Part shown: positions 261 to 37,144 of the stretch, piece by piece
Layout of the letters: each line of letters opens with the position of its first letter
Numbering within the stretch: the stretch's first letter is position 1
Virus record (IMG/VR): IMGVR_UViG_3300024955_000001
Coordinates: 4,579 to 68,578 of that record
Direction: 5' to 3' (one strand)
DNA length: 64,000 nt
Source of the DNA: a virus
The notes under the pieces: generated by a model
The model's database searches: none
What the model was told of the DNA's origin: nothing
The model's input: only the letters and a program-made list of their open reading frames with translations
Translations under genes and position numbers: made by a program

Positions 261-272
261 CCCTATACAGGG
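261..272 (-). repeat. late-region motif copy (minus: CCCTGTATAGGG)
   Basis: Plus strand ccctatacaggg. 33 nt upstream of the holin-like ATG. Confidence 0.6.
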
Positions 273-290
273 CGGACAGAATGAAAGGCG

Positions 291-656
291 CTACGAAGGG
301 GTACCGCTGCTGCGCGAGGTGTAGCGCGGCTGGTTCGGCGGGTGGTACTCGCTCGGGTAGTTCTTGCGGTCGAACTCCTTGGTGTAGGCGTTCTTGCAAT
401 GGTCCGGGCCCTGCCAAAAGAACAGGAGGTTGATGATGGGCATGAACAACTTGCCCAGCACCTTCCCGTCGCGGTGAGCGCGGTACGCGCGCGCAGACAG
501 CGTTTCGTCCGCGTAGCTCACAGTGCCGTCCAGCGGCGGGATCAGGGCATTGACGAGCTGATCCACGCCAATGAACACCTGCTGCCCGTAGGCGAGAGCC
601 AGTGCAGCGATGCGTTTAAGCCGACCGGGCGGCGTCGAACTGGAAACCTGCGTCAT
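291..656 (-). CDS. hypothetical phage protein
   Basis: ORF track, 121 aa, between the fibre-assembly gene and the holin-like gene. It overlaps the upstream ORF by 41 nt, so the start is uncertain. No motif recognised. Confidence 0.45.
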   Translation of the reverse strand: MTQVSSSTPPGRLKRIAALALAYGQQVFIGVDQLVNALIPPLDGTVSYADETLSARAYRAHRDGKVLGKLFMPIINLLFFWQGPDHCKNAYTKEFDRKNYPSEYHPPNQPRYTSRSSGTPS

Positions 657-1221
657 TTGCTTCGTCCTCGATAGATGCGGGCCAACCCCCGCTGTAGTCG
701 TAGCTGCCCGGGTCTGGGCTCGCTTCCATGGTCATCCGGTGGATCTCAGCCGCCATGAAAATGGCTGAGTCGCTGGCCGCCGTGGCCTGCACGATCTGGA
801 TTGCCAGATCACGGGTCATCACCACAAACACGGGTTGGGGGACGAACGTCAGCGTCTTCCACTGCAGCCCGGGCGGAATCACGAGCGTGGCCGAGGTCAG
901 CGCGAGCTGCTGGATGCGGCTCTTCTCGTCGCTGTGGAACCAGTGCGCCCCGACCTTGACGCCCAGGGCAGCGCGGCGGTCGCGCTCGGCTTTGATGGCC
1001 TCCCAGGCTGCGGCGCGGCGCTGCTCGATTGGCGGCGAGACATAGGACGCCTCCACCTCTGCAATCAGTGCCTCGTATGGAGCAGCCTGATCGCCCAGCA
1101 CGGCGCGCAGTTGTCTCATGGCCGAATTGGAGTAGCCGTGGCGCAACTCCCCCTCGGCAGTGCTCCAAACTAGTTCAATGGATGGCGGGTCATCGCTCTT
1201 GAGTACATCAATGAGGATCAT
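616..1221 (-). CDS. tail-fibre assembly / DUF4376-like protein
   Basis: 201 aa. The segment AWEAIKAERDRRAALGVKVGAHWFHSDEKSRIQQLAL resembles the DUF4376 domain of phage fibre-assembly proteins. It lies immediately downstream of the fibre genes. Confidence 0.5.
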   Translation of the reverse strand: MILIDVLKSDDPPSIELVWSTAEGELRHGYSNSAMRQLRAVLGDQAAPYEALIAEVEASYVSPPIEQRRAAAWEAIKAERDRRAALGVKVGAHWFHSDEKSRIQQLALTSATLVIPPGLQWKTLTFVPQPVFVVMTRDLAIQIVQATAASDSAIFMAAEIHRMTMEASPDPGSYDYSGGWPASIEDEANDAGFQFDAARSA

Positions 1222-1223
1222 GG

Positions 1224-1844
1224 TCAGTACCCAGATGCGGTCCCGACAGTGCGGGCAAATGTGTTGCTCAATGCCTCATAGGCGCCATTTGTTGCGTTGA
1301 GCGTCACCTGCTGCGATGTCCACCCCTCCCCGGCACCGGAGCCCATGCTGACCCCGAAGTTCAGAATGCCCGAGCCAACCCCCGACCCTTGCGAGCTAAG
1401 CGGAAAATCGATGGCCGTGCCGTTCTGGATCGATGCCAGTAGGTGCACCTGGTAGGCGAATGAACTGGTGCCATCGGCATTCGGAAAGCGGATGTCAACA
1501 AACGTCTGGCCGTTGGTGCCGTTGTCAACGACGCGCCAAAGATACGGATGCGCGTGACCGTAGTTGTACGAGCCGAGCAGTTCCACTTTGAGGATGCCGG
1601 AGCCGTAAGCAGCGCCCTGCGTGGTTTTTGCAAACGTCACTTTCAGCATCACATGGCGCGTCGGGATGACCAGGTAGAACTCGGCCATGTAGCCAGCGTT
1701 TGAGTTCGACATGGAGCACAGCCGGTACCAATTCCCGGCGAATGGCAGTAGCGTGCCTGTGAGCACTTTGTTGGCCACGAGCACATTCGGGCCAGACATC
1801 ACATAGCCCTTATCGAACGAGAGATTGGCGCCGACGTGCTTCAT
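1224..1844 (-). CDS. tail-fibre distal subunit candidate
   Basis: Start moved to ATG 1844 (MKHVGANLSF...), giving an ATGA stop/start overlap with the upstream fibre gene. 206 aa, beta-rich composition. Confidence 0.5.
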   Translation of the reverse strand: MKHVGANLSFDKGYVMSGPNVLVANKVLTGTLLPFAGNWYRLCSMSNSNAGYMAEFYLVIPTRHVMLKVTFAKTTQGAAYGSGILKVELLGSYNYGHAHPYLWRVVDNGTNGQTFVDIRFPNADGTSSFAYQVHLLASIQNGTAIDFPLSSQGSGVGSGILNFGVSMGSGAGEGWTSQQVTLNATNGAYEALSNTFARTVGTASGY

Positions 1845-2569: not shown

Positions 2570-2580
2570 GGTCTGATTCC

Positions 2581-2931
2581 TCAGTTGCAGTAGGCGTAGC
2601 CGATGTAGGGCGCCCCGTGGGTAACCTGCACGATGTCGGCGTCCACATACAGAACGTCAGCGGCGAGCAGATTGCCCAGGTGGTCAGTGACCGCGACGGA
2701 AGGGCGCCGCGACAAGTTGTGAGCCACTGTCCAGACAGCGGAAGGGATTGCCTGCGTGTGGGTGTATGTGGCACCGCCAGCTGGTCCCGGCGGGCCAGGA
2801 GGTCCTGGGGGGCCCTGCTCTGCAACAGCCACAACCTCCGTAATCTCAACCTCGTCAACGACAGTGCTTTCAACCTCGTCGATGACAACATCGGTCAGCA
2901 CTTCCTCAACGCAAGCGCAGTTAGACGACAT
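2581..2931 (-). CDS. short collagen-like repeat protein (fibre/whisker component?)
   Basis: 116 aa. Acidic V/E-rich N-terminus, then GPPGPPGPPGPAGG (nt 2776-2814). Confidence 0.55.
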   Translation of the reverse strand: MSSNCACVEEVLTDVVIDEVESTVVDEVEITEVVAVAEQGPPGPPGPPGPAGGATYTHTQAIPSAVWTVAHNLSRRPSVAVTDHLGNLLAADVLYVDADIVQVTHGAPYIGYAYCN

Positions 2932-3265
2932 GGGTTGAACCTTCGCGGATGCCTACGCTGCCAGCGGCAAACGGAGTGACATCGCCGCCTGGATGGTCGA
3001 TCAGCAAGTCATAGGTGCCCCGCTCCCAATTGATAGCGCCTGTGACTTCGTCAGGGACAACGAGGTCCACCGTTCCATTCACACCGCCGAGAGTGATGAA
3101 GGCGGTCAAATCGAGCAGCAGTGCGCCTTCATCAGAACGGATCTGCATACGCGCTCCGCACCCTGTCAGGTCCACAGGGGTCCCGCTAGGCGTCTTCCAG
3201 CGCCAGCGCTTTCTGTAAGTGCCGCGCTTGTAGATCGTGAGGTTGCTCTTGATCGGCGTGTTCAT
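2921..3265 (-). CDS. hypothetical virion-associated protein
   Basis: The ORF-track start 3301 is TTG. The first ATG (MNTPIKSNLTIY...) is at 3265, giving 114 aa. That ATG lies inside a 12-bp hairpin. Confidence 0.5.
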   Translation of the reverse strand: MNTPIKSNLTIYKRGTYRKRWRWKTPSGTPVDLTGCGARMQIRSDEGALLLDLTAFITLGGVNGTVDLVVPDEVTGAINWERGTYDLLIDHPGGDVTPFAAGSVGIREGSTHVV

Positions 3266-3294
3266 GCCCTGCAGTTTTCCGGCTGCAGGGCATG
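3263..3294 (-). promoter_or_regulatory. perfect 12-bp hairpin sequestering the start codon of the gene after the giant ORF
   Basis: catgccctgcag-ttttccgg-ctgcagggcatg. On the mRNA, the 3' arm ends in the AUG at 3265. Confidence 0.5.
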
Positions 3295-3302
3295 TGGACA
3301 AA

Positions 3303-3314
3303 CCCTATACCGGG
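3303..3314 (-). repeat. late-region motif copy (minus: CCCGGTATAGGG)
   Basis: Abuts the TAA stop of the giant gene. 37 nt upstream of the next ATG. Confidence 0.6.
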
Positions 3315-6300
3315 TTACCCGTTCTCTCGTGCCATATCCCGCATCTGCTGGCGCAGCGCCTTGGGCGCCGTGTCTGCGATCCGGGCGGTGCGGTCCTTGC
3401 CCATTTCGCGCACGCGCTTCATCACGTCCGGGATCTTCACCACGATGGGCTGGTCTGGGTTGTTGCGGTTCCAGGCCGCCAGGCGGTCGCGCACCCGCTG
3501 CAGGGCATCGTCATCCTTCTCAAAGACAGCCTGCGCCCACTGCGCCTTGATGTCATTGCTGGTCTGGATGTAGAAGCTCTTGGAGCGCTGCATGAAGGAG
3601 TTGGCCTCCTGCACCTCTGCGACGGGCTTGGGCTGGAAGCCGATGGCCTTGGCAATCGCCTCGTCCAAGGTCGTGTCGATGACCTTGTAGCCCTTGGCGT
3701 CCTTGTAGATGCCGCTGGTCCCCATGTCGATGCCTTTGGCCAGGTTGCGCACCGCCGCTGGGGACACCTCCAGCGCCGCGCCGGCTACGTCGCCAGTCAG
3801 CAGCTTGCGCGCCCCAGTGAAGCCGCGCGCCACCAAGTCGCCCGCTGGGCCGGCCACCTCCAGCAGATCCCGCTCGCGGTTCTGCTTGGACAGCAGCAGG
3901 CCGGTACCGGGGATCAGGTTGCCCATGCCCAGGCGGCCCGACACGTCGATGGGGGCGCCAGGCAAGCCGGACACGCCCTGCTCCATGAAGTCGGCCAGCT
4001 CCTTGCCCACCACATCGCGCAGCGCCTGCTTGCGCCAGTGCTTGGTGCTGATGTTGTAGCCCATGAGCTGGCCGGCGCCGTCGATCAGATCCTCGGCGTC
4101 TTCCATGAACGGTAGGCCACCAGCACCACCCATCAGCAGCAGCATGGCCACTGCCCATCCCACAGCACGCTTGCCCTCGGGGCCTCCCTGTGTCCACATG
4201 CGGTGCATCAGCTCCAGATAGCTGACCGAATAGGTCTTGAAGGTGAACAGCGTTCCGCCGATGGTGCCGCGCGCCCACTTCGGCTTGTTGGCCTTGGAAT
4301 ACACGAACTGCGTTTCCTGCACGGCGCGCTCGGCAAACTTCGCCGGATCGGCCATGCCCTGCTCCTTGGCGATGCGATAGGCGGCAATGAAGGTGCTGCG
4401 GCGGTTGAACTGCTCGGCCAGGGCGAAGGGCTGGCCCCATGCCACCTTGACGCGCTCCCAGTTGTTGGCCGCCGCAGCGCGGGCGTCGCCCAGCTTGGTA
4501 CCGTCACCGGTGCGCAGCGAACCCGCGCCCCGGGCCTGCGCCATCAGCTGGTGGATTTCCTGGGGCGACACGATGCCCTCGGCCTCGGCCGTTTGCAGCG
4601 CCTTGGCCAGGTCTGGCTCGTAGCCGCTGCGGCGGGTCATGTCGCGCACTGCAGCAGCCAGGTGCGAGGCGGCGCTGCGCATGCCCCCGAACTGGGACAG
4701 CCAGGGCATGGTGATCTGGAATGGCTGGGTCATGTTGACCATGGCCGAAGCTACAGAGCCGCCCAGGTATTGCGCGAACAACATGCCGCGTACGGCTTGG
4801 CCTTCCTCCTGGGGATCTTGGATGTAACTGCGCAGGCCCATGGCCACGTCGCGCAGCTCGCCCTGCTCCTTCGGGATGCCCTCGATGGCGGTTTCCAGCG
4901 TGCCCGCGTTCAGCCCCCCGGCCGCCAGGCGGGCATTGGAGTACACGAAGCTGGCCAGCACCCGGCCCACGTCCTCGCTGTATCCGCTGATGCCCTTGCG
5001 GTGGATCAGGCGCTTGAGCGCGCTGTGGTTGTTCTTGGCCAGCTGCAGGTAGGCCTGGAATGCCTTGTCCTTCGGGTCCGTGCCCTCACCGCTCAGGCCC
5101 AGCATTTGGCCGAAGTGCTCAAGGCTTTCCGGGGTGATGCCCTGGAACAGCTTGAATGCCTCGTCGCTCATGGTGCCCTGGGTGACTGTCGCGCCAGGGA
5201 ATTCCTTCTCCATGGCGGCCTTCATCTTGTTGGACTCGTACATCGACTCAAACATGCCGAAATACTCGCGCGTGCCGTCCTTGCCCACCACGTCCACGGT
5301 GTAGCGGCCGAAGCGCGACAGCGGCGCGTAGCCGGCCTCCATCAGCGCCCGGGCGCGCTCGTAGCTCTTCACCACGGCGTTGTTCAGGCTCAGGATGCGG
5401 TCGGCCTGGTCGGGGGACTCGCGGGCTTCGGCCTGCAGCGTGTCCGTGATGAGCACCATCGCGTCTTCCACGGTGGCCTGGGCCAGGACCGCCTCGCGCA
5501 GATCGGCATAGCCGGCGCCCATGGCGCGCAGCATGTCGGCACGTGCGGTCATGTCCAGCGAGCGATCAATCGCGGCCCGCGCTTCCTGGTACAGGCTCAC
5601 CTGCTGGGCGTTCAGGCTGAACAAATCTTTCAGCTCTTTTTCACTCCAGATCACGCCCGGCTTGAGGATAGTGCTATCAAATTTGTTATTGATGATGGTG
5701 TTGTACTGATCCACCGGCAGGCCGCGCCACGCCTTGAGCATCTGCTCCTGGATCTTGCCGGTGCGCAGCAGGATCTGCGCCTTCTCATCAGGCGTGGTGT
5801 TGCGGTACTTCGCATTCAGGGCCTCGGTGGTCACGGGCGTGCCGTCCACATCGCGCGCCCACAGCAGCGTGCCCTCAAACAATGGCTTGGCCACAGCCTG
5901 GTTGTCGGCAGCGGTGATGGGCTTTTTCTTGAGGTCGGCCAGCGTCTCCACCCGGGGCAGCAGGCGCGGCGCGCGGTCGGCGGCGTCGTTGCCCAGCATG
6001 GACACGTCATCAATGAAACGCTGCGCCGCTTCGTACACCGGCTTGAACACCGGCGAGCGCTCGGCCAGGTTGCGCATGGTGCCCACGGTCTTGTCCCACA
6101 GAGACACCTTGCCAGGATGGGTCAGCGTCTGGTGGATCTGCGCCAGTGCACTGTCTTTCAGGTCGGCCGTGCTGGAACGGCTGAAACGGATATCCGGGTC
6201 AGCGCTGCCAGCGTCGCTTGCACGGCTCATCACCGGCTGGCCACCACGCGGCCCCCCGCCCGGCCCGCCGCGCACCACCCAGCCGCGTGCCGGCAGGATG

Positions 6301-9300
6301 TACGCTTGAATGATGTCGTTGTCCGTCAGGCGCAGACTTTGGAAGCCTGGCACGTGCTGGCGCAGGAAGTTGCGAATGGCGGAAATCGCCCGTTGCACAA
6401 AGGGCAGTTGGGGGGTCTTCTCGGCCATTTCTGCCAGAACTTCCTCAGCCGCTTCGCGCACGCTCAGGCTGTTCACCCCGCGCAGGCCGTATTCCCGCAT
6501 CTTGGCGGCAACCTCGGCTTTGCGCATGGTAGCAAGCTGGTTCAGCACCTGATCCAGGTCGCGGCCGAACTTGCCGCGCAGCCCGTGGTGGCCCAGCACC
6601 TCGTGGTACAGCACGCGCGCCGCGTCGTTGGGCGTGTTCAGGCGAGAGGCCATCAGGTAAGCCTTGCCACGGTAGTAGAAGCCCTCTGGCGCTCCGCGCG
6701 CACCGCCGCTGCGCTGGCGCAGGTCAGCATTTCGTGCAGCTTCGGGGATTCGCTGGTCCTGCATGTCGAAGGCCACCACCACCTCGGGCGCATTCGGGCC
6801 CCATGCGGCGCGGATGGCGTCCACTGTGCCGGACACTGAGGCGACAGCTTGGCGACGCGCGGCGTCGGAGTACACCGATGGTTGATCCATGGCCGCGAGG
6901 TAGGAGGCCATATCAAAATCGTCAGCCTGCGCAACACCAGCGGGAGCCTCGCGTCGGAATGCAGGCGCATCGCCCGCAGTTCCATCGCCCGCCTCGGATT
7001 CCTCGGGGGTCGTCGGGGCGGCACTTTGGGCCTTGCCTTCCAGCAGGCCCACCAGCTCACGCAGGCGCTCACGCTTGGCGGTCAGCTCCCCAGCCTTGGG
7101 GAACGTCTGGTTCAGCTGTTGGCGCAGCGCGGGCAGTTCTGCCTTCGCCCGCGCAAGCTGGCGCTCCAGGTAGTCAGTGCTGCTGTTGGCCAGGCGGCCA
7201 ATGTCATCGAACAGGTCTGTGACCAGGTTGCGCACGTTGGCCGGCACAACGGACTGGTTGACCGCGAACGAATTCAATCCCCGGCTGGTCACGGTGGCGC
7301 CGTCAGCGTCCACCAGCGACACCGAGGCGTCAATCTGGCCGCCACCCTTGCCGGTTTCGCGGGCCTGCGCGTCCAGCACCAGGTCATAGCCCAGCATGCT
7401 GCCCACGGTCGCGGTGCGCGAGTCGCCGGGCTGAATGCCCTTGGTCAGCTCGTTGAACTTGGCGGCCAGCTCACGCGCAGCAACGGTGTGCTGGGCGATC
7501 AGGCGCCCGTCAATGGTCACATCGAACAAGGATGAGTCACCAAGGGCAGCGCCAATCGCGGTGTCGATGCCGTCCTTGTTGGTCAGGCGCGCACCATCCA
7601 CAGAGATAGAGTACCGGGCCGTAGGCTTGCCGCCCTGCTGCTGCTCGATGGCCTCGTTCACGGCGGTCATCGCATCGCGCAGGTTGTCGTACTCCTTGCC
7701 CTCGATGGTCACACGGCGCTCTGCCTTGCGGGCGTCGGCCGCCTCCATGGCGGCGTTGGCCTTTTCCTTCTTGGCGCGCTCGTCGGCAATGCGGCCGGGA
7801 TTGCGCTCGATGGCGCGCTCCGCGCTCTCCACGGCATCCTCGATACCGAACATGCGGCGGCGGAATGCACGCTCCTGCAGCTCCAGCGTGGTGATCTCGG
7901 ATTCCGTCTTGACGCGCTCCAGCAGCAGGGGGTTGCCGGATGCCAGGGCCGCCATTTCGGCCATGCCCACGGCTTCCTCGTCATCGAACTCCATGGAAAA
8001 CGCGCCGTCGTACTTGCGAATGCCGTTGATGGTGCGCAGCTTGGTCGCGTTCAAGTCCCACATCTTGGCGTCCACCGTGCGCTCGGTGGCGTAGGCCAGG
8101 ATTTCCACCTCAAAGTCCGCGCGGAACATCGGGTTGGGCTTTTCAGCCGTTGGGGGCGTGCTGAACAGGTTACCTTGTCGGATCACCCGGCCCTCGCGCT
8201 GCTCGATGTCGCTGGGCTTCCAGGTCACGTCAACGTGGTGCAGAGCCACGGCACGCTGCTGCACGTTGGTACCTGCCCCCATGCGCGGGGTGGAGCCAAT
8301 CAGGACACGCACCTTGCCGCCGTTCACGCTGTCAAAGAGCGCGGCTTTCTGCTCATCGTTGTTGGCCTCCTGCACGAAGCGGATCTCGTTGGCCGGGATG
8401 CCAGTGGCGATCAGGTTGTCCTTGATCTGCTGGTAGGCGCTCCAGGGCGAGGTCTGCGCCTGGCGCAGCTCTGCAATCTCCCGGGGGTCGTAGCGGTCCA
8501 GGGCTTCCTGGGCTTCGTCAAAAGCCTCCTGGTCATCAGCGCGCAGCGCGGCGTCGCGCTTGGCCACCAAGTCGTCATAGGCCTTGATGATGGCGTCATC
8601 GCCCTTGGACTTCGGCACGGAACGGTCGAGGAACACCAGCTGCGTGCCCTGGTCGGCATCCCACTTGTCGTAGATGCGCTTGATGTTCTCGCTCACTACC
8701 TGCAGCTTCCCGCCTTCCTCGGTGCTGGTGCTGCGAGGGTCAACGGCGCGGATGTCCAGGGACAGCTTGCGCGCCCGGTCCATCAGGCGCAGGCGCTCGG
8801 CGTTGCGCTCATAGGGGTCTTCGATGCCGTCCAGGCCATCGAAGCCTTCCATCACATCTTTGAGGCCCTGCTCCTGGGCGGGGGTGGGCTTGATCGCCAC
8901 CAGGTTGCGGTCTTTGCCCCCTGCCACCTTCGGCACTGGGAACTCGCGGCCTGGATTGTCCTCGGCGTAGAAGCGCTTGATGTCATCCAGGCTCACCGCA
9001 TCGGTGACTTGGTAATACAAGTCCATCAGCGAACGCATGTTCGACCAGGTGCGGCCCAAGCGCGTGACCTGCTTGAGGCGGCCCGATTCGGTAGGCTCAA
9101 ACGCTGGCGTTGCCTCCACGAACTGCGCGCGGAAGGCATCGAAGTGGGACAGGCCCATGTCATCCAGCGAGTCGGCTGCCAGGTAGCGCAGCATCGTGAA
9201 CATTTCCACGGCGCTGTTGCTGATGGGCGTGCCCGTCAGGAAGGTGACGCTGCCCGTAGGCTGCTCGCGCAGCACGCGCACCTTGTTGTAAAGGTCGTTG

Positions 9301-15300: not shown

Positions 15301-16220
15301 ACCGCTGCGGAATCCACATCCGTCAGCCAGTCCTTGCCAAGCGCCACGTTCTGGAAGATTTGCTCGGCCACGGACTGCGGCAGCTCTTCCAGGAAACCCT
15401 CGGAGATCGCGCCCTCAATCACGCGGCGCGGAATGCTCTTGGCAGCCGCTTGCTGCACCAGAGGATTGACGGCGGCGGTAGCGGCATCGTCAGCGTTCTG
15501 CTTCGCCATGCCCTTGGTGCCCTGGGCCAGCATGGTTTCGGCGTCACCGATACCCAACTTGTTGGCCACGCGGCCGCCCAGCACGCCGAAGCCCGCCGTG
15601 GCCACGCCGGTTGCCGCTGCGAGCGCGGCCTGGGTGGGGGTCAGCAGCCCATCGGGAGTTTCCTGGCGGATCTGCTCGGCTGCGGAACCAGCTGCGGTGA
15701 TGCCTTCGCCGGCCGCGCCCGCCAATGCAGCACCAGCGGCGCCCATCTGGCCCAGCTTTGTCGCGGCCATGAGTCCTCGCGCAGCGACGCCCCCAGCGCC
15801 CATGCTGGGCAACGACTCACCAACGGCCGTCGCAATGAGGCTGGGGTTCTGAACGGCTGTAACGGCCTTGTCCACGATGCCATTGGCATCCTGAAACTTG
15901 CGTTGCGCCTCCTTGGTAGCGTCGGAGTGCCAGTCGTTGGCGATTTCCTTGGCCTGCTTGGGGCGAAAGCCCACAGAGCCACCCTCGTTCTCCAGGAACT
16001 TGCCCACCTCGCCGCCCGTGGGAATGTCGGCAATACCAACCAGGGCCTCGGGCACGCCAATGGCGCCCTTGACAGCTGTGGCAGCAACGTCCTTGATGGT
16101 GCCGCTCAGCGTACGCTTCGGCGAATCCGCTGCACCATCGAACTGGTCAAAGTAGTTCTTTCCTTTGCCACCCGGGCCGGCAGTTGAGGGGTCGAATTGA
16201 TCAAAGAAGTTGGAGCTCAT
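3315..16220 (-). CDS. giant polyvalent virion protein (DarB-like: N6-adenine methyltransferase + SNF2/DEAH helicase + zincin-like motif + PLxRFG membrane module)
   Basis: Single 4301-codon ORF. Motifs read directly: RYVGWGG (aa 1250), NPPFG (aa 1390), GAGKT (aa 2109), DEAH (aa 2278), QREGRVIRQGN (aa 2674), LYHEVLGHHG (aa 3204), APLSRFG (aa 3632). N- and C-terminal regions are Gly/Ala-rich and hydrophobic. Confidence 0.85.
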   Translation of the reverse strand: MSSNFFDQFDPSTAGPGGKGKNYFDQFDGAADSPKRTLSGTIKDVAATAVKGAIGVPEALVGIADIPTGGEVGKFLENEGGSVGFRPKQAKEIANDWHSDATKEAQRKFQDANGIVDKAVTAVQNPSLIATAVGESLPSMGAGGVAARGLMAATKLGQMGAAGAALAGAAGEGITAAGSAAEQIRQETPDGLLTPTQAALAAATGVATAGFGVLGGRVANKLGIGDAETMLAQGTKGMAKQNADDAATAAVNPLVQQAAAKSIPRRVIEGAISEGFLEELPQSVAEQIFQNVALGKDWLTDVDSAAVMGVLSGGAMGGAASGYHGFKQPKAEPGASPSEQPGAAPTDAGAAPPNLGMERIQQAFAAQLAALQQQEQGDPNVPQTAPPDGAAALAQQQAQAAEQRQAAMDASRAVQSPDDEIYQSTGATVPRSVAMGLDPAAGPLSASAALAVDTGASDQVQQAAALAQAAEVAQKQGKKTAQGNQKQEQPALTQQGVNQETGEISPGSPMESWSDAQLSNTFRGAQSREVRMQLAQELGRRRALREQQELQAELDAEQRASVPGAERADAAFASLTEDAGPVPADLTIPATTEGNRNGPQAAQAQQGSAQPSQVGAAPAVARGAPDAQGRPGANGAQQAAAAGLTDGAPTANPGAQTAPAPSAQAAPQAEGPAQRVASTGDAWTRMPTAERQALAQRADLKPIVRKNVHRAAWADLNRDVQRKLAVAMEPGAKDDATYTKAVELVRSAGAVNRPAIQAALGIGFGEVNALMDRMERDGVVTAEKANGERSFLPANTAPTGEAVPTAAPAAVTRQDKEKEQPNTGAVIAPAAINSEADKDGNTIVGRRADGVMIRQDKNGVRWYAQGGVRIEETVSLRPTRQGMQVSRGELKPEFMTAAESEAAKPAASPAPAAEKAINVSDENQAGTSTKEAPVATNSVANKAPATAKKPSADQVRAQADLMNALADLGDILGKGTRMNIVPEQEQKLLPVLTRVLDAAFRLGYHKFKDSAKFALDQIRANLGDDAADALTLDHLQGAYIAMAGGKTGADTKRAVIDVETKAEIEQHEAVVAADQAEADNAQQENPSDERTTVRSESPQALDAVAAQEGSRAEGERGAGAGAADSGQAGAAGSAVADGAGLSPARSGGSGPEPVRAPKTRARGRAGAVGAQGTRATGEPVPQADGRVAVPGGEASAPNIPAADFQITDEVGLGKGGEVQKFNDNLAAIRALKAIEAANRRATPEEQAMLARYVGWGGLANAFPDPASGQFKDKWTARGEELRELLTKEEYTAARRSTRNAHYTSQTVVSAMWDMVRRLGYRGGLVLESSMGSGNFLGLAPKDMPNRFVGVEYDSLTARIGQALYPQATVLHSGFQKVPVADNAFMLNIGNPPFGSESLRFQFKPELQGVSIHNQFFRAGMDALRPGGIQAMVVSRFLMDAQDKSSRLALAAQARLVAAIRLPDTAFKENARTEVVTDILIFQKMDAGEQAAMQAAITEYNKLKANKKDADAAAAALVPSWVETVKVPDPLGGEPMNVNAYFAENPANVLGVMERSGSMQHGADITVRLDNPAELGKLLSEAVQRLPEGIQNFQQDVLDATASRHKSMSDALRIAVANEEAGHIKATPDGKLQRVIERETPEGDFEFAYQDVDENSPWHESLSQNAEGQWYSLEPVLDEQGKNVKATNAKGEATRKNLYERKVYAKPEDVPEKLRLGKLGMKRLNGLVGLRDLLKRQLVLETADAVPAVMEGNRKSLAAAYEAFVKANGPVGRSTNMKLAMTMPDGGLIAALEVDYQPERTAEQAARSGLEAQKEKATPAPILRERVVPKYEPATKAATPSDALAITLAESGRVDMERIANLLGVSPEQAGEQLQQGADPLVFKDPETGQWETADAYLSGMVKRKLNAARAAGMTKNAEALEKIIPADWTAENVAVTMGATWVPPEIYADFVRHLVGGKARVSFSALTNSFSVSVDGAERTSMSNWSSEGAPADYIITRILNSKAVTVTARDADGNTYIDKERTALAGLKAREIEAEFGDWVFKNGERRQRLVDVFNEKFNTRVVRQFNGQHLQLPGKVPDAILKMRRHQMNAIWRGIYERFMLVDHAVGAGKTFTAIARAMERRRMGLSRKPMVAVPNHLVEQWAADVYRLYPGAKVLAAGKKDFEAKRRRRLFGKIATGDWDIVIVPHSSFGFIGIAPETESRYLELEMAQAQAAIEDAWEQAREDGTDNGRRKPFNVKEAERLAEKIQARMDRLAEGVRDRLLTFEQLGVDDLTVDEAHEFKNLYYSSNLTGVRGMGDKTGSRKANDLYNKVRVLREQPTGSVTFLTGTPISNSAVEMFTMLRYLAADSLDDMGLSHFDAFRAQFVEATPAFEPTESGRLKQVTRLGRTWSNMRSLMDLYYQVTDAVSLDDIKRFYAEDNPGREFPVPKVAGGKDRNLVAIKPTPAQEQGLKDVMEGFDGLDGIEDPYERNAERLRLMDRARKLSLDIRAVDPRSTSTEEGGKLQVVSENIKRIYDKWDADQGTQLVFLDRSVPKSKGDDAIIKAYDDLVAKRDAALRADDQEAFDEAQEALDRYDPREIAELRQAQTSPWSAYQQIKDNLIATGIPANEIRFVQEANNDEQKAALFDSVNGGKVRVLIGSTPRMGAGTNVQQRAVALHHVDVTWKPSDIEQREGRVIRQGNLFSTPPTAEKPNPMFRADFEVEILAYATERTVDAKMWDLNATKLRTINGIRKYDGAFSMEFDDEEAVGMAEMAALASGNPLLLERVKTESEITTLELQERAFRRRMFGIEDAVESAERAIERNPGRIADERAKKEKANAAMEAADARKAERRVTIEGKEYDNLRDAMTAVNEAIEQQQGGKPTARYSISVDGARLTNKDGIDTAIGAALGDSSLFDVTIDGRLIAQHTVAARELAAKFNELTKGIQPGDSRTATVGSMLGYDLVLDAQARETGKGGGQIDASVSLVDADGATVTSRGLNSFAVNQSVVPANVRNLVTDLFDDIGRLANSSTDYLERQLARAKAELPALRQQLNQTFPKAGELTAKRERLRELVGLLEGKAQSAAPTTPEESEAGDGTAGDAPAFRREAPAGVAQADDFDMASYLAAMDQPSVYSDAARRQAVASVSGTVDAIRAAWGPNAPEVVVAFDMQDQRIPEAARNADLRQRSGGARGAPEGFYYRGKAYLMASRLNTPNDAARVLYHEVLGHHGLRGKFGRDLDQVLNQLATMRKAEVAAKMREYGLRGVNSLSVREAAEEVLAEMAEKTPQLPFVQRAISAIRNFLRQHVPGFQSLRLTDNDIIQAYILPARGWVVRGGPGGGPRGGQPVMSRASDAGSADPDIRFSRSSTADLKDSALAQIHQTLTHPGKVSLWDKTVGTMRNLAERSPVFKPVYEAAQRFIDDVSMLGNDAADRAPRLLPRVETLADLKKKPITAADNQAVAKPLFEGTLLWARDVDGTPVTTEALNAKYRNTTPDEKAQILLRTGKIQEQMLKAWRGLPVDQYNTIINNKFDSTILKPGVIWSEKELKDLFSLNAQQVSLYQEARAAIDRSLDMTARADMLRAMGAGYADLREAVLAQATVEDAMVLITDTLQAEARESPDQADRILSLNNAVVKSYERARALMEAGYAPLSRFGRYTVDVVGKDGTREYFGMFESMYESNKMKAAMEKEFPGATVTQGTMSDEAFKLFQGITPESLEHFGQMLGLSGEGTDPKDKAFQAYLQLAKNNHSALKRLIHRKGISGYSEDVGRVLASFVYSNARLAAGGLNAGTLETAIEGIPKEQGELRDVAMGLRSYIQDPQEEGQAVRGMLFAQYLGGSVASAMVNMTQPFQITMPWLSQFGGMRSAASHLAAAVRDMTRRSGYEPDLAKALQTAEAEGIVSPQEIHQLMAQARGAGSLRTGDGTKLGDARAAAANNWERVKVAWGQPFALAEQFNRRSTFIAAYRIAKEQGMADPAKFAERAVQETQFVYSKANKPKWARGTIGGTLFTFKTYSVSYLELMHRMWTQGGPEGKRAVGWAVAMLLLMGGAGGLPFMEDAEDLIDGAGQLMGYNISTKHWRKQALRDVVGKELADFMEQGVSGLPGAPIDVSGRLGMGNLIPGTGLLLSKQNRERDLLEVAGPAGDLVARGFTGARKLLTGDVAGAALEVSPAAVRNLAKGIDMGTSGIYKDAKGYKVIDTTLDEAIAKAIGFQPKPVAEVQEANSFMQRSKSFYIQTSNDIKAQWAQAVFEKDDDALQRVRDRLAAWNRNNPDQPIVVKIPDVMKRVREMGKDRTARIADTAPKALRQQMRDMARENG
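3318..6300 (-). other. C-terminal PLxRFG-type module with transmembrane segments
   Basis: APLSRFG at nt 5307-5324. Hydrophobic helices (e.g. AVGWAVAMLLLMGGAGGLPF) lie near the C-terminus, typical of ejected internal virion proteins. Confidence 0.5.
8150..9970 (-). other. SF2 (SNF2/DEAH) helicase module of giant protein
   Basis: Walker A GAGKT (nt 9882-9896), DEAH (nt 9378-9389), TGTPISNS, and motif VI QREGRVIRQGN (top nt 8201). Confidence 0.8.
11540..12650 (-). other. N6-adenine DNA methyltransferase module of giant protein
   Basis: ADFQITDEVGLGKGG...RYVGWGGLANAFPD...LESSMGSGNFLG (motif I-like)...NIGNPPFG (motif IV, nt 12039-12053). Confidence 0.8.
12659..12958 (-). CDS. embedded 99-codon ORF in +1 frame of the giant gene (hypothetical small protein)
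   Basis: ATG 12958 with AGGAG 10 nt upstream. MSAQLYEARARKHWTQWLPKKVAALKASGELEQ...QYRKQMGA has K/E/Q/W-rich, protein-like composition. My hand count gives GC3 ~86% in this frame versus ~37% for the giant frame over the same 300 nt. Confidence 0.45.
   Translation of the reverse strand: MSAQLYEARARKHWTQWLPKKVAALKASGELEQALQTAGKQAQQEVLSLMEQGFRQHEAEEVALSQYVLLKPEPEAELEPWERKELAQLESQYRKQMGA
13866..14009 (-). other. winged-helix segment of giant protein (FtsK-gamma-like)
   Basis: aa ~738-785, YTKAVELVRSAGAVNRPAIQAALGIGFGEVNALMDRMERDGVVT, resembles the FtsK gamma / wHTH DNA-binding fold. By-eye resemblance only. Confidence 0.3.
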
Positions 16221-16256
16221 CCACCCACTGTCCAGCAGCGTGAGGAATGGGCAAAA

Positions 16257-16268
16257 CCCTATGCCGGG
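16257..16268 (-). repeat. late-region motif copy (minus: CCCGGCATAGGG)
   Basis: 36 nt upstream of the giant-gene ATG. Confidence 0.6.
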
Positions 16269-16349
16269 CGATGAACGATTGGAGCTTTCGAATCTGCAGC
16301 GCCACTCTGATTGCGTACCCTGCTACATTCCTCACAGGAGGGAGAATCC

Positions 16350-19105: not shown

Positions 19106-19161
19106 GGGGACTCCTTTATTCATCTGGCCGGATTGTTGACACCAGCCAGGGGCCCGCAAAG

Positions 19162-19173
19162 CCCTATGCAGGG
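19162..19173 (-). repeat. late-region motif copy (minus: CCCTGCATAGGG)
   Basis: Embedded in the hairpin ccgcaaa...tttgcgg. 56 nt upstream of ATG 19105. Confidence 0.6.
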
Positions 19174-27604: not shown

Positions 27605-27613
27605 CGCCGTTCC

Positions 27614-28151: not shown

Positions 28152-28159
28152 GTGGCCTA

Positions 28160-29455: not shown

Positions 29456-29512
29456 AGTGACCTCCTTCAATGGGACGGGGGCGGCTCATCACGAGCGGCC
29501 CGGTTTCAAAAA

Positions 29513-30556: not shown

Positions 30557-30750
30557 TTGCTGCGTGCTCCATCCCAGCTATCCGGCTGGGCCTGACTGGG
30601 CATGCGGTCGAGGGTTGGCCAGGGCCATCGCCCCGGCTTTCCGCTCTCCTGCTGCGGGATATGCGCCGCTTCACAGCGGTGCGGTTTCGCCCGGCGCTTC
30701 ACAGCGGGGGGCTTGGAACAAGTATTCCCAGGTGTGGCAAAAACCCTCTG

Positions 30751-30762
30751 CCCTATGCTGGG
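30751..30762 (-). repeat. late-region motif copy (minus: CCCAGCATAGGG)
   Basis: Just downstream of the internal terminator, at the head of the ~195-nt scaffold leader. Confidence 0.6.
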
Positions 30763-30768
30763 TAGGCG

Positions 30769-30794
30769 CAAAAAAGCCGCCTCAGTGGGCGGCT
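30769..30794 (-). terminator. intrinsic terminator inside late operon (before scaffold leader)
   Basis: Minus-strand RNA AGCCGCC-CACUGA-GGCGGCU + U6. Lies 23 nt after the stop of the 96-aa membrane-protein gene. Confidence 0.65.
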
Positions 30795-30816
30795 TTCTGG
30801 GGTTCGCGGTGGGCGC

Positions 30817-31107: not shown

Positions 31108-31201
31108 AGCTGGAACTCCTGTGATGGTGCCGTGGCTGCGGCGAAACCCTGACCGTTGCGGGTAGGGCCTCATGGTCAAGCCACGGCGCCGGATCGCTGC
31201 G

Positions 31202-31213
31202 CCCTATGCCGGG
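31202..31213 (-). repeat. late-region motif copy (minus: CCCGGCATAGGG)
   Basis: Contains the TAG stop of the 77-aa gene. Confidence 0.6.
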
Positions 31214-31437
31214 CGGCGACCACAGATGCGCAGCGGGTACACATCCACAGTGACCTGCACATCGTTGTGGTCACGCACGTGGCAGATTGCGCGGCCTGGC
31301 TGAATGGTCCCTGCGCGGAAGTCCATGCGGTTGACCAGCTCCTGCAGCGCGTCATTGACGAATGGAGCGACGTGCGCCCCCTCGGTGCTACCGGTCACTG
31401 TCACGTCAATGCTCAGACGCAGTTCGGGGCCCATCAC
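31204..31437 (-). CDS. hypothetical protein
   Basis: 77 aa. ATGA overlap with the upstream gene. The stop TAG lies inside a CATAGGG motif copy. Confidence 0.5.
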   Translation of the reverse strand: MMGPELRLSIDVTVTGSTEGAHVAPFVNDALQELVNRMDFRAGTIQPGRAICHVRDHNDVQVTVDVYPLRICGRRPA

Positions 31438-31973: not shown

Positions 31974-32030
31974 GAACACTCCTGGGTTGATGAGGGTTCG
32001 ATGCTCAGTGCCACCCTAGGAATGCCATAG

Positions 32031-32042
32031 CCCTATGCCGGT
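32031..32042 (-). repeat. late-region motif copy (minus: ACCGGCATAGGG)
   Basis: Starts 6 nt after the portal stop. 58 nt upstream of ATG 31973. Confidence 0.55.
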
Positions 32043-32047
32043 CGGAC

Positions 32048-34336
32048 TCACTGCGGCAGATTGTCGGCAAGGGCGGGTGTCTCGATCCCCTGCATGCCCT
32101 GCCCTGCCTCTTGTGGCACGGGCGGGAATTCCGGGCTGGTGTTCTCGCGCACGGCTGGCGCACCCTGCGCCTCGGCCTCTGGCGAAGCCGCAGCACCGCC
32201 ACCGCCCTGGATGTATGGGCTCTTGATGTTCATGGCGGCCGTAACGTCCGGGGTAGGGAAATTCGGGTCCACGCCACCGGGGTTGGGCGGCTGGTATCCA
32301 GCGCCCTGCATCACCTTGTCCGCTATGGGCGCGATCATTGGCATCTGCGCCACTTGCGCTCCTGCTTGCATAGCAGAGAACGCAGCTTGCACGCCGGTTT
32401 GCACCGCTTGGGCCATCAGCTGCTTAATGCGCGCATCGCTCTCGGCCTCCTTCATGGCCACCTCGCGCTCCTTGAGGTCGTGCATCAGCTCCTGCTTGAC
32501 CTGGTTACGGATGGCCTCGGGATCGGCTTGGCCCTGGGCGTTGCGGATGGCCTCCACCACTTCCTTCTTGCGGGGCAAGTCCATCAGGTCGATCATGAAC
32601 GGCATCACAACCTGCTGGATCTCGGGCGTGGCGGCCTTGATCGACTCGGACAGCGCGTTGAGCTGCTGGGCGCGGAAGCTGGAGGAGCTGGGCACATCCT
32701 CCAATGCAACCTTGAGGCGCGTGCGCTGTACGTCATTGCTCAGGAGCACGATGTTGGTGTGCGGGTCCACCTCGGGGCTGTTGAGCACCACCGTGCGCGG
32801 TGGGTTGAGCACGTCGCCCTCGATCACCACCACCGTTTCCTCCTTGCCGATGTCTTCAATGATGAGGGCCGTCAGCATTTCGCCCACCAGCGCACGGGAG
32901 TCCTTGAAGTTGTCCATGAGGTCGGCCAGCGACACCTGGGACTGCTCCACCTGGGTCTGCTCCTGCACGCCGCTGGTGGCCGTGCCTTGCTGGCCCTGGA
33001 ACGACGGTGTGACGCCCGACACACCAGCAGCAGCCGCGCGCGAGTCCTGCATGAGCTGGAAGTGCTGCGCGTTGAGCTGGAAGTCGCGGTTGCGCTCGAA
33101 CTTCGCCCCTGGCTGCCCCATGTGGTCGGCGTCGAGCACAAAGTCTGCATCCACCCGGGATGCCATCTGCCGGAATTGCGCATCCGGCATTTTCACGGCG
33201 CCCTTGGTGCGGATCGTCTCCACCGCCGACATGCCCCAGCGCAGCTTGGAAATCGTGCTGTTGAGGTTGTCCTGCGGGAAAAGCATGTCGCGCACCAGCC
33301 CGAAGGGGATGCCGGTCAGGTCTTCCTGGGCGGCGATGACGCGCACATAGGGGAAGTGCGGATGTGGGTACGGGCTCGGGCCATCGAACAGGCAATGCGG
33401 GCCCATCCAGTAGCTGCGGCGCACCACGGGCAGCAGTTCCTCCACCAGCTTGCCACGGCCCAGCGACAGGGCTGCTTGGTGCAGCTGATTGGCCGGGTCG
33501 TACTTCACCGCGCGCCCGTCCTTCATCTTGAGCATCACGGTCGTCACCCAGCGCCGGTACCACAGCTCCGTGATACAGACGGTCTTGTTTTCCTCGTTGT
33601 AGTAGGCGTCCTCCACCGTGGTCCACGCCCGGTGTGCCTCGGCGGCAGCGTGCAGGCCGGTGGACTGTCCGCCCTCCAGCTCCTGGATGCCGAACTCCGC
33701 GATCCACTTGTCCGCCCCGTTCATGATGATCGTGGCGTGATCGCGGAACATGCGCGCGGCGCGGGTGCGGCTGATCCAGCGGCGGCGGAAGAGCCAGCGA
33801 GCGTCCGACAGATCGGGCTCGATGGCCTTCATGTCCCACCAAATCTCGTTGCGGTGGATGTAGCGGCACTTGTAGGGGAACTCCAGCGAGTTGCTGGCGC
33901 GCGCAACCTCGACCCAGCCGATGCCCACAGCGCAGGCAGGCTTGAACGCAGCCGACAACGCGCGATCCGCCTTGGAGTGGCGCTCGGCCTGGTTCAGCTT
34001 GAAGTTCAGCGCATCGGCCACGTCCTGGCCGCCCGGGTCGCCGTCCGGCGTCACGCGCCAGTCGGTGCGCGTCTTGGCCTCCATGCCGCACACGGCGCGG
34101 ATGGCGGGGCCAATGATGTTTTCCTTGGCGGGCGGGATGCCCATGTCCTTCAGCTTGCGCAGCAGCTCAGTGCTCAGCTGGTTGCCATCGGCGTAGTCAG
34201 CCTCCTTGTCGGCCTGGGCGCGCCATGGCGGCTGGGCCAGGCTCTCGCGCACGATGGAGGCGAACTCATCACGGGTGATGGGCTCGTCCCGGCCGTCCTG
34301 CAGCTCGTAGTTTGTGAGGGGTTGGGTAGCGTTCAT
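32048..34336 (-). CDS. portal protein
   Basis: Start set to ATG 34336 (MNATQPLTNYEL), 10 nt after the terL stop. 762 aa. Canonical position after terL, with a Gly/Ala/Pro-rich C-terminal tail. Confidence 0.75.
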   Translation of the reverse strand: MNATQPLTNYELQDGRDEPITRDEFASIVRESLAQPPWRAQADKEADYADGNQLSTELLRKLKDMGIPPAKENIIGPAIRAVCGMEAKTRTDWRVTPDGDPGGQDVADALNFKLNQAERHSKADRALSAAFKPACAVGIGWVEVARASNSLEFPYKCRYIHRNEIWWDMKAIEPDLSDARWLFRRRWISRTRAARMFRDHATIIMNGADKWIAEFGIQELEGGQSTGLHAAAEAHRAWTTVEDAYYNEENKTVCITELWYRRWVTTVMLKMKDGRAVKYDPANQLHQAALSLGRGKLVEELLPVVRRSYWMGPHCLFDGPSPYPHPHFPYVRVIAAQEDLTGIPFGLVRDMLFPQDNLNSTISKLRWGMSAVETIRTKGAVKMPDAQFRQMASRVDADFVLDADHMGQPGAKFERNRDFQLNAQHFQLMQDSRAAAAGVSGVTPSFQGQQGTATSGVQEQTQVEQSQVSLADLMDNFKDSRALVGEMLTALIIEDIGKEETVVVIEGDVLNPPRTVVLNSPEVDPHTNIVLLSNDVQRTRLKVALEDVPSSSSFRAQQLNALSESIKAATPEIQQVVMPFMIDLMDLPRKKEVVEAIRNAQGQADPEAIRNQVKQELMHDLKEREVAMKEAESDARIKQLMAQAVQTGVQAAFSAMQAGAQVAQMPMIAPIADKVMQGAGYQPPNPGGVDPNFPTPDVTAAMNIKSPYIQGGGGAAASPEAEAQGAPAVRENTSPEFPPVPQEAGQGMQGIETPALADNLPQ

Positions 34337-34346
34337 GGTCGTCGCC

Positions 34347-36086: not shown

Positions 36087-36087
36087 G

Positions 36088-37095
36088 TCAGCTCCCGTCG
36101 TCGGGCTCGTCGGGCTCGTCGGGCCGCATAGGCATGCTGGACGCTGGGCGCTCAGGGTCATCCGCAACGGGCTTGAACCCATTGCCACTGCCCGATGCAA
36201 TGCGCTGCAGCAGGGATGCGAGCGGATCGGTCTTCTGGTCGTTGTCCTTCTCGTAGAGGCCCAGATGGCGGAAGAGCTTTTCCGCATAGGGCGACTTGTC
36301 GTGCGTCTTCACCTCGATGCCGAACTGCGTCTGCTTGGCTCCTGCGTAGAGCGCAGCGCCCTTCTCGCTCAGGTAGCGGGTGTCCTTGAGCACCACGCGC
36401 GCATGGCCGTCGCCGCCGCACTCGGGGCACTCGGCGTGTGGGGCGCGCAGGGGGTTGAATCCGATGCCGCCTTGCTCATCGAACTCGGCGGGGTTGTTGC
36501 CCTTCTCCACCCACTTCTCGCGGTCGCGGTTCATTTCGCCCACGGTGCGCTGCCACTTGTGGCCCTCGCCGTAGCAGCAGCGGCAGCAGCCGGTTTTGAG
36601 CTCCACCAGCTCGCGGGTGTCAGCCGTGACGATGTTCCACGCCTCACGCAGGACGCCATCGGCGGTGATCTGGGTGCGCTCCTGCTGCTCCTTGCGGGCG
36701 GCGTTCAGGGCGCGCTGGATACTAAGTTTTGCTAAGAGCTGGGAGCCCTGCTCATTGGCCGTGTGCGGGCTGTACCCGGCACGAATGGCGGCCTGGGTGG
36801 CGTTCATGTCCACCATGTACTCATCGACAAAGCGCTGCTGCTTGTCGGTCAGTACGGTTTCGGTGGGGGTGATGGTGGGCGCCGGTTCCGGCTGGGGTGT
36901 GGCTTGCGCCTTGGCCTTCGCCTTCGGAGGTGGTGGTGCCTTGGCGGGTTTGGCGCTTGCTGCGGGCGCCTTCTTGGCCGGTGCTGCCTTGCGCGCAGGC
37001 GTGACTGAGCCTGCGGCCTTCTTGGGGGCTGCAGGCTTGGTGGGGGTCTTCTTACTGGGGGGTGCGGACTTCTTGCCCGCTGGGGGTTTGGCCAT
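36088..37095 (-). CDS. terS: terminase small subunit (Terminase_2-like) with K/A/P-rich N-terminal tail and Cys cluster
   Basis: LTDKQQRFVDEYMVDMNATQAAIRAGYSPHTANEQGSQLL is the classic small-terminase HTH. aa 1-78 are KPAA-type low complexity. CCRCC...CPECGGDGH lies C-terminal. Confidence 0.8.
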   Translation of the reverse strand: MAKPPAGKKSAPPSKKTPTKPAAPKKAAGSVTPARKAAPAKKAPAASAKPAKAPPPPKAKAKAQATPQPEPAPTITPTETVLTDKQQRFVDEYMVDMNATQAAIRAGYSPHTANEQGSQLLAKLSIQRALNAARKEQQERTQITADGVLREAWNIVTADTRELVELKTGCCRCCYGEGHKWQRTVGEMNRDREKWVEKGNNPAEFDEQGGIGFNPLRAPHAECPECGGDGHARVVLKDTRYLSEKGAALYAGAKQTQFGIEVKTHDKSPYAEKLFRHLGLYEKDNDQKTDPLASLLQRIASGSGNGFKPVADDPERPASSMPMRPDEPDEPDDGS

Positions 37096-37119
37096 GCCCG
37101 GGAGTCTTCCGGGGCATGG
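37092..37119 (-). promoter_or_regulatory. hairpin sequestering terS start codon
   Basis: ccatgccc(gg)...(cc)gggcatgg, 8+2 bp. The AUG at 37095 is in the 3' arm. Uses the same CAUGCCC/GGGCAUG arms as the 3263 hairpin. Confidence 0.45.
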
Positions 37120-37132
37120 GGGATTGGCCTAA

Positions 37133-37144
37133 CCCTATGCTGGG
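37133..37144 (-). repeat. late-region motif copy (minus: CCCAGCATAGGG)
   Basis: 38 nt upstream of the terS ATG. Confidence 0.6.

Follow-up and report, generated by a model that had tools for sequence, protein, structure and literature searches.

A conserved intergenic box with a -10-like hexamer at fixed distance marks putative activator-dependent late promoters of an F116-like prophage

Gene map of the window and the intergenic box

We analysed a 64,000-nt stretch of the virus record IMGVR_UViG_3300024955_000001 (the window; all coordinates are positions in it), and in particular a 12-base box, CCCNGYATAGGG, which recurs between its late genes and is likely to belong to a set of late promoters. 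By protein similarity the window phage is an F116-like prophage, a distant relative of Pseudomonas phage F116, with identities to F116 of 61% for the small terminase (TerS), 63% for TerL, 56% for the portal and 54% for the capsid protein. Its close relatives are prophages of Acidovorax and Comamonas, and megablast of the window against sequenced phages gave the terminase as sole match, in BcepMigl and Ralstonia phages. An open reading frame (ORF) map with third-position G+C (GC3) filtering showed minus-strand genes from position 1 to about 45.6 kb and plus-strand genes beyond. The genes that matter here are the following.

36088-37095, minus strand: small terminase gene, TerS (Pfam Terminase_2)
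32048-34336: P22-like portal gene (Pfam)
28160-29455: capsid protein gene (Pfam)
3315-16220, minus strand: gene of a giant protein of 4301 aa with helicase-type domains, as in DarB-like proteins of Lessieviruses
39594..40196, minus strand: candidate late activator gene (200 aa), part of the early operon and 2.5 kb ahead of promoter 1
45297-45569, minus strand: Cro/YdaS-like gene, facing the cI-like repressor gene
45639-46397, plus strand: cI-like S24 repressor gene

The early operon runs leftward from 45.6 kb, carries replication genes and a gene for a Rha/ANT protein, and ends at 37.4 kb, so that the first copy of the box falls exactly at the boundary between early and late genes. In the 4301-aa protein the SNF2, ResIII and helicase-C signals were sub-threshold, and an FtsK-gamma match at residues 733-790 was near-threshold (30.3 bits versus a cut-off of 30.6 bits). 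The BcepMigl homologue of this protein is annotated as DarB-like, and the F116 counterpart of the giant-gene region consists of two genes, p59 and p60.

The exact box was found seven times in the window, always on the minus strand (at 261, 3303, 16257, 19162, 30751, 31202 and 37133), compared with 0.02 matches expected by shuffling, and seven matches were reached in 0 of 100 shuffles. An eighth copy, ACCGGCATAGGG at 32031-32042 on the minus strand, is the only one-mismatch match in the window. Matches with two mismatches were at chance level (36 versus 34 expected), and the shorter core GYATAGGG brought only one extra match, on the plus strand and inside a gene. All eight copies lie within gaps between minus-strand late ORFs; the copy at 3303 adjoins the TAA stop of the 4301-aa gene, and the TAG within the copy at 31202 is the stop codon of ORF 31204-31437. 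No copy of CCCNGYATAGGG was found on the plus strand or in the early regions (37.4-64 kb) of the window. These results bear out an earlier sequence-only reading of the window, which had reported eight same-strand intergenic copies in the late operon and none in the early regions or in the opposite orientation, and whose distances from the boxes to the next start codons were also correct.

A -10-like hexamer downstream of the box

Copies from the window and from related phages were aligned on the 12-mer, with its first C counted as 0. No conservation was seen upstream of the CCC. Downstream, an A at +37 and a T at +41 were near-invariant, and an A at +39 and a purine at +36 were frequent. The resulting hexamer nAnnnT (summary form RAnAMT), which the sequence-only reading had overlooked, lies exactly 24 nt past the GGG in all eight window copies. 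The -10 hexamer of the sigma70 family is recognised by an unvarying A in second and T in sixth position. Among the 60 non-redundant sites, that is, the related sites left after removal of near-duplicates, the hexamer consensus was R-A-C-A-C-T; both signature bases were kept in 57 of the 60, in agreement with a sigma70-type -10 element, and a T at the first position was seen in a single site.

With the hexamer taken as -10, the box spans about -48 to -37. It is followed by Y at -36, T at -35 (49/57), G at -33 (32/57), G or A at -32 (47/57) and C at -31 (34/57), which together form a degenerate -35-like element, T-n-G-R-C, adjoining the box and 17 bp from the hexamer. The continuation GGGTTT(T)G(C/T)CC described earlier holds only loosely, the conserved bases after GGG being Y, T, n, G, R, C. 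The earlier remark that the copies do not resemble sigma70 promoters holds only in part, since a sigma70-like hexamer lies 24 nt downstream and a weak -35-like TnGRC stands 17 bp from it. A simple consensus promoter scan does not detect these promoters in the window. The eight predicted promoters, with one terminator, are listed below.

37093..37144, minus strand: late promoter 1, small terminase; box CCCAGCATAGGG at 37144-37133, TAGGC at 37131-37127, hexamer AAGACT at 37108-37103; ATG 37095-37093, 7 nt past the hexamer, predicted leaderless
31994..32042, minus strand: late promoter 2, downstream of the portal gene; box ACCGGCATAGGG at 32042-32031, hexamer GAGCAT at 32006-32001; leader with an AGGAG ribosome-binding site, then ATG 31973
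31165..31213, minus strand: late promoter 3; box CCCGGCATAGGG at 31213-31202, hexamer GACCAT at 31177-31172; likely start ATG 31107 with a GGAG ribosome-binding site
30770..30793, minus strand: intrinsic terminator, GCCGCC-CACTGA-GGCGGC then TTTTTT, with its end 7 nt ahead of promoter 4; seen by reading the sequence and missed by a simple terminator scan
30714..30762, minus strand: late promoter 4, scaffold-like, capsid and downstream genes; box CCCAGCATAGGG at 30762-30751, hexamer AATACT at 30726-30721; leader of ~160 nt, ATG 30556
19121..19173, minus strand: late promoter 5, virion protein of 651/657 aa; box CCCTGCATAGGG at 19173-19162, hexamer AACAAT at 19137-19132; ATG 19123 (8 nt past the hexamer) and in-frame ATG 19105 with a ribosome-binding site
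16218..16268, minus strand: late promoter 6, 4301-aa DarB-like giant gene; box CCCGGCATAGGG at 16268-16257, hexamer GACAGT at 16232-16227; ATG 16220, 6 nt past the hexamer, predicted leaderless
3263..3314, minus strand: late promoter 7, directly after the giant-gene stop; box CCCGGTATAGGG at 3314-3303, hexamer AAAACT at 3278-3273; ATG 3265, 7 nt past the hexamer
220..272, minus strand: late promoter 8, left end of the window; box CCCTGTATAGGG at 272-261, hexamer AATGAT at 236-231; ATG 222, 8 nt past the hexamer (ATG 228 would precede the predicted transcription start)

Conservation and box variants in related phages

The related loci were collected around homologues of TerS, of the capsid protein and of the candidate regulator, and around those of either end of the giant gene; they carry L-numbers, L001 being BcepMigl and L188 being F116. 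In 186 such loci (2.92 Mb, partly overlapping) there were 84 exact matches to the 12-mer, all of them on the gene strand. Conservation at equivalent positions in related phages had been proposed as a check on the motif, and the orthologous sites do keep the box, with only N and Y varying and the other ten positions fixed. Similarity between phages starts exactly at the CCC and runs downstream, the upstream flanks being unrelated.

This was seen site by site. Promoter 1 is kept in L002-5, L021, L029-31 and L056-68 with unrelated upstream flanks, and the N-terminus of TerS from ATG 37095 is conserved at the protein level. The orthologue of promoter 2 in L003/L029 is CCCGGCATAGGG, and promoter 3 has orthologues in L002, L003, L029 and L041. 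Promoter 4 has an orthologue, varying at N and Y, in every relative that covers the site, and F116 shows the same arrangement before p42; the F116 counterpart of promoter 5 is the site before p58, the homologue of the 651/657-aa gene. Before the giant gene (promoter 6), many relatives have the same layout of box, hexamer and ATG, in which the N-terminal codons differ and the ATG spacing is kept. Orthologues of promoter 7 occur in L122-L187, and sites with AATGAT, 8 nt and ATG, similar to promoter 8, in L141 and L173.

More distant relatives keep the layout, namely a box ending in GG or GGG, 24-25 nt, the hexamer and often an ATG, with a changed box. The variants are as follows.

L037: CCCCTGTAGGG (three copies) and CCCCCTCTAGGG (one copy)
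L035: CCCTTTGTAGGG
L039: CCCCGC(A/T)TAGGG
L006: CCCCCACTGGGG
L007 and L032: CCCGGCTAGGG
L049: CCCCTTGTGGGG

In F116 the box is CCCCCYGTARGG, with five copies on the gene strand versus 0.24 expected and a spacing of 24-25 nt between box and hexamer; the copies precede TerS, p42 (after a terminator), p58, the holin gene and p64. In all these variants the C-run and the G-run are kept and the interior is changed; GTAAGG and ACTGGGG are seen in place of ATAGGG. Prophages of a single host genus, Comamonas, carry two of the box types, which points to a phage-encoded rather than a host reader. Nothing relevant on the motif or on late promoters of F116 turned up in the literature searched; this did not include the original genome paper of F116, in which the F116 repeat may have been noted.

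The box motif is absent from BcepMigl, a Lessievirus, so the Bcep22 literature is uninformative on it. BcepMigl itself carries four exact copies of TTTCGCACCA, at 2214, 6961, 18465 and 42952, one of them upstream of its small terminase gene; with one mismatch allowed, 6 copies were found versus 3.0 expected, which is not clearly above chance.

Restart after terminators, predicted leaderless starts and hairpins

The box before the scaffold and capsid genes has an intrinsic terminator 7-9 nt upstream in all relatives, the TerS box is preceded by one in L031, L063-65 and L067, and a T-run lies just upstream of the box in 15 of 57 sites. An element placed after a terminator and before a gene must restart transcription, suggesting that it is a promoter and not a signal at the RNA level.

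In 36 of the 60 non-redundant sites an ATG lies 6-8 nt past the hexamer, that is, at the expected transcription start. As background control, metagenome contigs were searched with a 14-base form of the pattern, and the matches were mostly due to chance; the same coupling was seen in 9 of 113 of these unrelated matches (~8%). In the window, the ATGs at 37095, 16220, 3265 and 222 are placed in this way, as is possibly that at 19123 of the 651-aa protein, and no Shine-Dalgarno sequence was found before the first four. At the remaining three window promoters the start codon is preceded by an ordinary leader with a ribosome-binding site. This arrangement suggests that four or five of the eight promoters give leaderless mRNAs.

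The TerS gene of F116 has an annotated start at record nt 22851. An in-frame ATG lies 75 nt upstream, at nt 22776 (locus 7581), 7 nt past a -10-like hexamer as in the window and its relatives; the F116 box before it occupies 22727-22738. The annotated F116 start is therefore probably too short, the TerS start lying 75 nt further upstream.

At the leaderless-type sites, the part of the spacer immediately before the hexamer can pair with the bases that start immediately after the hexamer and extend to the ATG, and the resulting hairpin has the hexamer in its loop and the AUG in its stem. Two examples from the window are given below.

37093..37118, minus strand: TerS hairpin, CAUGCCCCGG/CCCGGGCAUG, with the -10 hexamer in the loop and the AUG in the 3' arm; -19.4 kcal/mol, z -3.9
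3294-3263, minus strand: promoter 7 hairpin of 12 bp, enclosing the hexamer and the ATG; -24 kcal/mol, z -6.0

Per-sequence folding, on which the hairpin statistics are based, gave the leaderless-type sites a mean of -16.4 kcal/mol and a mean z of -2.1 (z < -2 in 20/38), versus -7.6 kcal/mol and 0.2 for the sites with leaders (z < -2 in 1/19), and the difference was significant (Mann-Whitney p = 4e-6). The sequences of the hairpin arms differ among relatives, their complementarity is kept and their register varies. RNAalifold predicted no common structure for 21 leaderless-type sites because the stems lie in different registers. A transcript that began at the ATG would be without the 5' arm, and on the simplest reading the hairpin would mask the start codon in read-through RNA only.

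The hairpin loops or upper stems at 3279-3286 and 37106-37113 (minus strand) contain CCGGAA, with a GGA triplet, and resemble CsrA/RsmA-type sites.

A winged-helix candidate for the activator

The 200-aa protein encoded at 39594..40196 matched one family only, phrog_8117, which has no assigned function; no Pfam or NCBIfam match was above threshold, and a sequence search of the PDB with it returned nothing significant. Its AlphaFold (AF2) model (pLDDT 74) has an N-terminal winged helix-turn-helix (wHTH), a small beta sheet and a long C-terminal helix, and the fold matches of the model, with marginal E-values, were winged-helix regulators such as IdeR/DtxR and ROK repressors.

The protein was found at >=55% identity, that is, at least 55%, in all relatives that carry the motif and whose locus extends over the early region, and more distant homologues, with 26-45% identity, in phages with variant boxes. 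Its F116 homologue, gp37, is encoded by the last of the early genes, which stops 2 nt short of the TerS box. Furthermore, the sequence classes of the wHTH and wing in this family follow the box classes. These results point to the 200-aa winged-helix protein of the F116 gp37 family as the most likely activator, although such evidence for the reader of the box is suggestive and not proof.

Neighbouring features

Several other features lie close to the elements described above. Directly upstream of the TerS promoter, a 61-aa ORF (37177-37362, minus strand) resembles a ribbon-helix-helix protein in its sequence; it had no homologue in any related locus and no family match. Between two late genes, where the G+C content is locally lower, a plus-strand ORF of <=280 aa (at most 280 aa) with predicted membrane helices, 16311-17153, lies antisense to the late genes. 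It resembles a moron, which would account for the giant gene having its own promoter. In the immunity region, just past the cI-like repressor gene, lies the only Rfam match in the window, a Burkholderiales-2 RNA (RF02917) at 46909-46983 on the minus strand, with 91 bits versus a gathering score of 67.9. The plus-strand gene at 60414-62171 encodes a C5-cytosine DNA methyltransferase that F116 also has (45-51% identity, within what is annotated as F116 p10); CCGG occurs inside only 4 of the 8 box copies, so there is no evident link between the box and this enzyme.

Proposed mechanism and alternative explanations

We consider it probable that every copy of CCCNGYATAGGG forms the upstream part of a late promoter that depends on an activator and is transcribed by host RNA polymerase of the sigma70 type. 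The box (-48 to -37) would adjoin a degenerate -35 (T-35, n, G, R, C-31), and a weak -10 (R-12, A-11, C, A, C, T-7, almost never with T at -12) would follow at fixed distance. With a -10 and a -35 this weak, the promoters would be nearly silent alone. A phage-encoded DNA-binding protein from the early operon would bind the CCC…GGG box and recruit or stabilise RNA polymerase as a class II activator, in the manner of lambda cI at PRM or of Mu C/Mor, so that transcription of the late genes would be turned on from eight sites spread over the 37-kb late region. At four or five promoters it would start on the AUG itself or no more than ~2 nt away. At the strongest leaderless-type sites the hairpin would bury the AUG in RNA read through from upstream, and only transcripts initiated at the promoter would be translated. 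Among the possibilities raised by the sequence-only reading, that of an activator- or phage-sigma-dependent late promoter element agrees with these results, and we favour its activator form.

Several points weigh against this model. The literature searches found no mapped transcription start, footprint or expression data for the window phage or for F116. The match to the -35 hexamer, TTGACA at 16-18 bp from the -10, is weak. Leaderless late mRNAs are unusual in Proteobacteria, and with ordinary leaders at three window sites the leaderless reading is not general. As to the candidate activator, its fold matches are marginal (best E ~4e-3) and concern the winged helix only, shared ancestry alone could yield both the co-occurrence and the co-variation of wHTH and box, and a second conserved protein, encoded at 48952-49536 (phrog_874, F116p07), is also common to F116.

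Other readings of the box were weighed on the same evidence. It is unlikely that the box is read directly by a phage sigma-like factor or by a protein modifying RNA polymerase, as T4 gp55/gp33 and MotA/AsiA do. The single T at hexamer position 1 in 60 sites, atypical for housekeeping sigma70, and the many early ORFs without recognisable family would suit such a factor, but none of the scanned ORFs (about 60 window ORFs were scanned with Pfam) has a sigma70 region 2/4, gp55 or RNA polymerase domain. Moreover, the box ends 24 bp from the hexamer, beyond the -35 reach of one sigma, and it is TnGRC that stands at the normal 17-bp spacing. Searches with Pfam, PHROGs and NCBIfam found no RNA polymerase, sigma factor, Mor/C, Ogr or Q protein among the window ORFs scanned. 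This result also bears on the idea that the box is a promoter at which a single-subunit RNA polymerase, T7-like or carried in the virion, starts at GGG; we regard this as extremely improbable. The appeal of the idea lies in the superficial match of (C/T)ATAGGG to -4 to +3 of T7-class promoters and in the giant 4301-aa virion-type protein, by analogy with the N4 virion RNA polymerase. That protein, however, shows FtsK-gamma, SNF2/ResIII and helicase-C signals only, and neither it nor any other scanned ORF has a polymerase domain, as the sequence-only reading had already remarked of single-subunit enzymes. Nothing is conserved at -17 to -10 relative to GGG, conservation beginning 9 nt before it, relatives swap ATAGGG for GTAAGG or ACTGGGG, and the downstream hexamer and ATG coupling would be left unexplained. 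The earlier analogy with a T7-like initiating region thus found no support, for want of a polymerase and of upstream conservation and because the variants lose TATAGGG.

Action of the motif in RNA, as a CCC/GGG hairpin, a processing site or a site for a CsrA-like protein in polycistronic transcripts, is very unlikely. Such a role could account for a motif that is strictly coding-strand and intergenic and whose CCC…GGG complementarity is kept even in the variant boxes, and CsrA-like proteins are encoded by F116 and by the Lessieviruses, the annotated genes in F116 (p47) and BcepMigl (gp35) lying among structural genes. On the other hand, a stem of 3 bp is hardly stable and gains no consistent pairing from its flanks, little RNA would cross the several copies that directly follow strong intrinsic terminators, and no Rfam match at the gathering threshold was found at the motif sites. 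Nor would it account for the invariant A/T hexamer at a fixed 24 nt, with or without an adjacent ATG. The processing site and the small hairpin that had been suggested earlier are unlikely for the same reasons, the terminators and the 3-bp stem. A CsrA binding site was rejected in particular, the motif having no GGA core and the scanned window ORFs no CsrA homologue. Finally, we give little credence to an element acting in DNA outside transcription, be it a recombination linker where modules meet, a signal for packaging or replication, or a target of methylation. Homology between relatives does break exactly at the 5' edge of the motif, and the phage encodes a C5-cytosine methyltransferase; however, strict gene-strand orientation, a fixed -10 spacing and coupling to start codons are not expected of such an element, and because promoters are natural module boundaries, the homology break fits the promoter reading equally. 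Chi-like, pac and methylation sites were rejected on the fixed spacing of the -10-type hexamer and the start-codon coupling.

Beyond the window, and more tentatively, it is possible, although we hold this with some doubt, that the F116-like temperate podophages of Beta- and Gammaproteobacteria share an undescribed late regulon. In this regulon, winged-helix/coiled-coil activators of a new family, phrog_8117/F116 gp37, would read a lineage-specific C3-5…G3-4 box at -42. About eight promoters would be served, most of them leaderless, including those of the small terminase and the 4301-aa DarB-like protein, and AUG-burying hairpins would silence read-through RNA.

The analysis offers a complete and testable map of late transcription for a widespread group of temperate phages, the F116-like phages and the prophages of Acidovorax, Comamonas, Pseudomonas and relatives with the DarB-like giant gene; F116 and its host are standard laboratory strains. 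It also proposes a likely function for a protein family without an assigned one, phrog_8117. It further corrects start-codon annotations, as is probably the case for F116 TerS, and predicts an unusual use of leaderless mRNAs with hairpin-masked start codons in late genes of proteobacterial phages. The lineage-specific boxes and their activators would serve as orthogonal promoter/activator parts.

Relation to known late promoters

Activator-dependent late promoters with a poor -35 are well known, from Mu C/Mor and P2 Ogr to lambda cII and cI. The middle and late promoters of Mu, which depend on Mor and C, number several per genome and have a recognisable -10 and a poor -35; the C/Mor site has partial dyad symmetry, is centred near -43 and adjoins or overlaps the -35, and the activator comes from the preceding temporal class. 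The predicted position of the window box, -48 to -37 on a promoter with a -10 and a poor -35, is similar. In contrast to Mu, the box has an unrelated sequence, the ~60 window ORFs scanned include no Mor/C-family protein by Pfam Mor, the candidate combines a winged helix with a coiled coil, and many transcripts are predicted to be leaderless.

At lambda PRM, cI and, at other class II promoters, CRP and FNR (at -41.5) bind at about -42 beside a weak -35, where they can contact sigma region 4 or the alpha subunit, and PRM gives a leaderless mRNA. The window box is also centred at about -42 next to a weak -35. It differs in that it would serve a dedicated late regulon with at least 8 sites, in that box and factor are unrelated to those of cI and CRP, and in the strong asymmetry of the box centre.

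The late promoters of P2, 186 and P4 use the zinc-finger activators Ogr, B and Delta, which act at TGT-N12-ACA at -55. The window phage would share with them a temperate lifestyle and several activator-dependent late operons transcribed by host RNA polymerase, whereas its box differs in sequence and in position (-42.5 versus -55); the region upstream of the box is unconserved, and no Ogr-like zinc-finger match to Pfam was found in the scanned ORFs. Lambdoid Q antitermination works from one late promoter that has a Q-binding element and lies ahead of terminators that are read through; the presence of at least 8 dispersed copies, several of them downstream of terminators, does not agree with it. 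T7-class promoters, with about 20 bp conserved from -17 to +6 around the initiating GGG, have only the letters TATAGGG in common with the box.

Compared with the literature searched, to which the original F116 genome paper did not belong, the box, the candidate activator family, the frequent transcription starts predicted at start codons and the associated hairpins appear to be new. The closest characterised phage is F116 (Hollowayvirus), which has the same genome plan and the same promoter layout at corresponding positions, with the box CCCCCYGTARGG in place of the CCCNGYATAGGG of the window.

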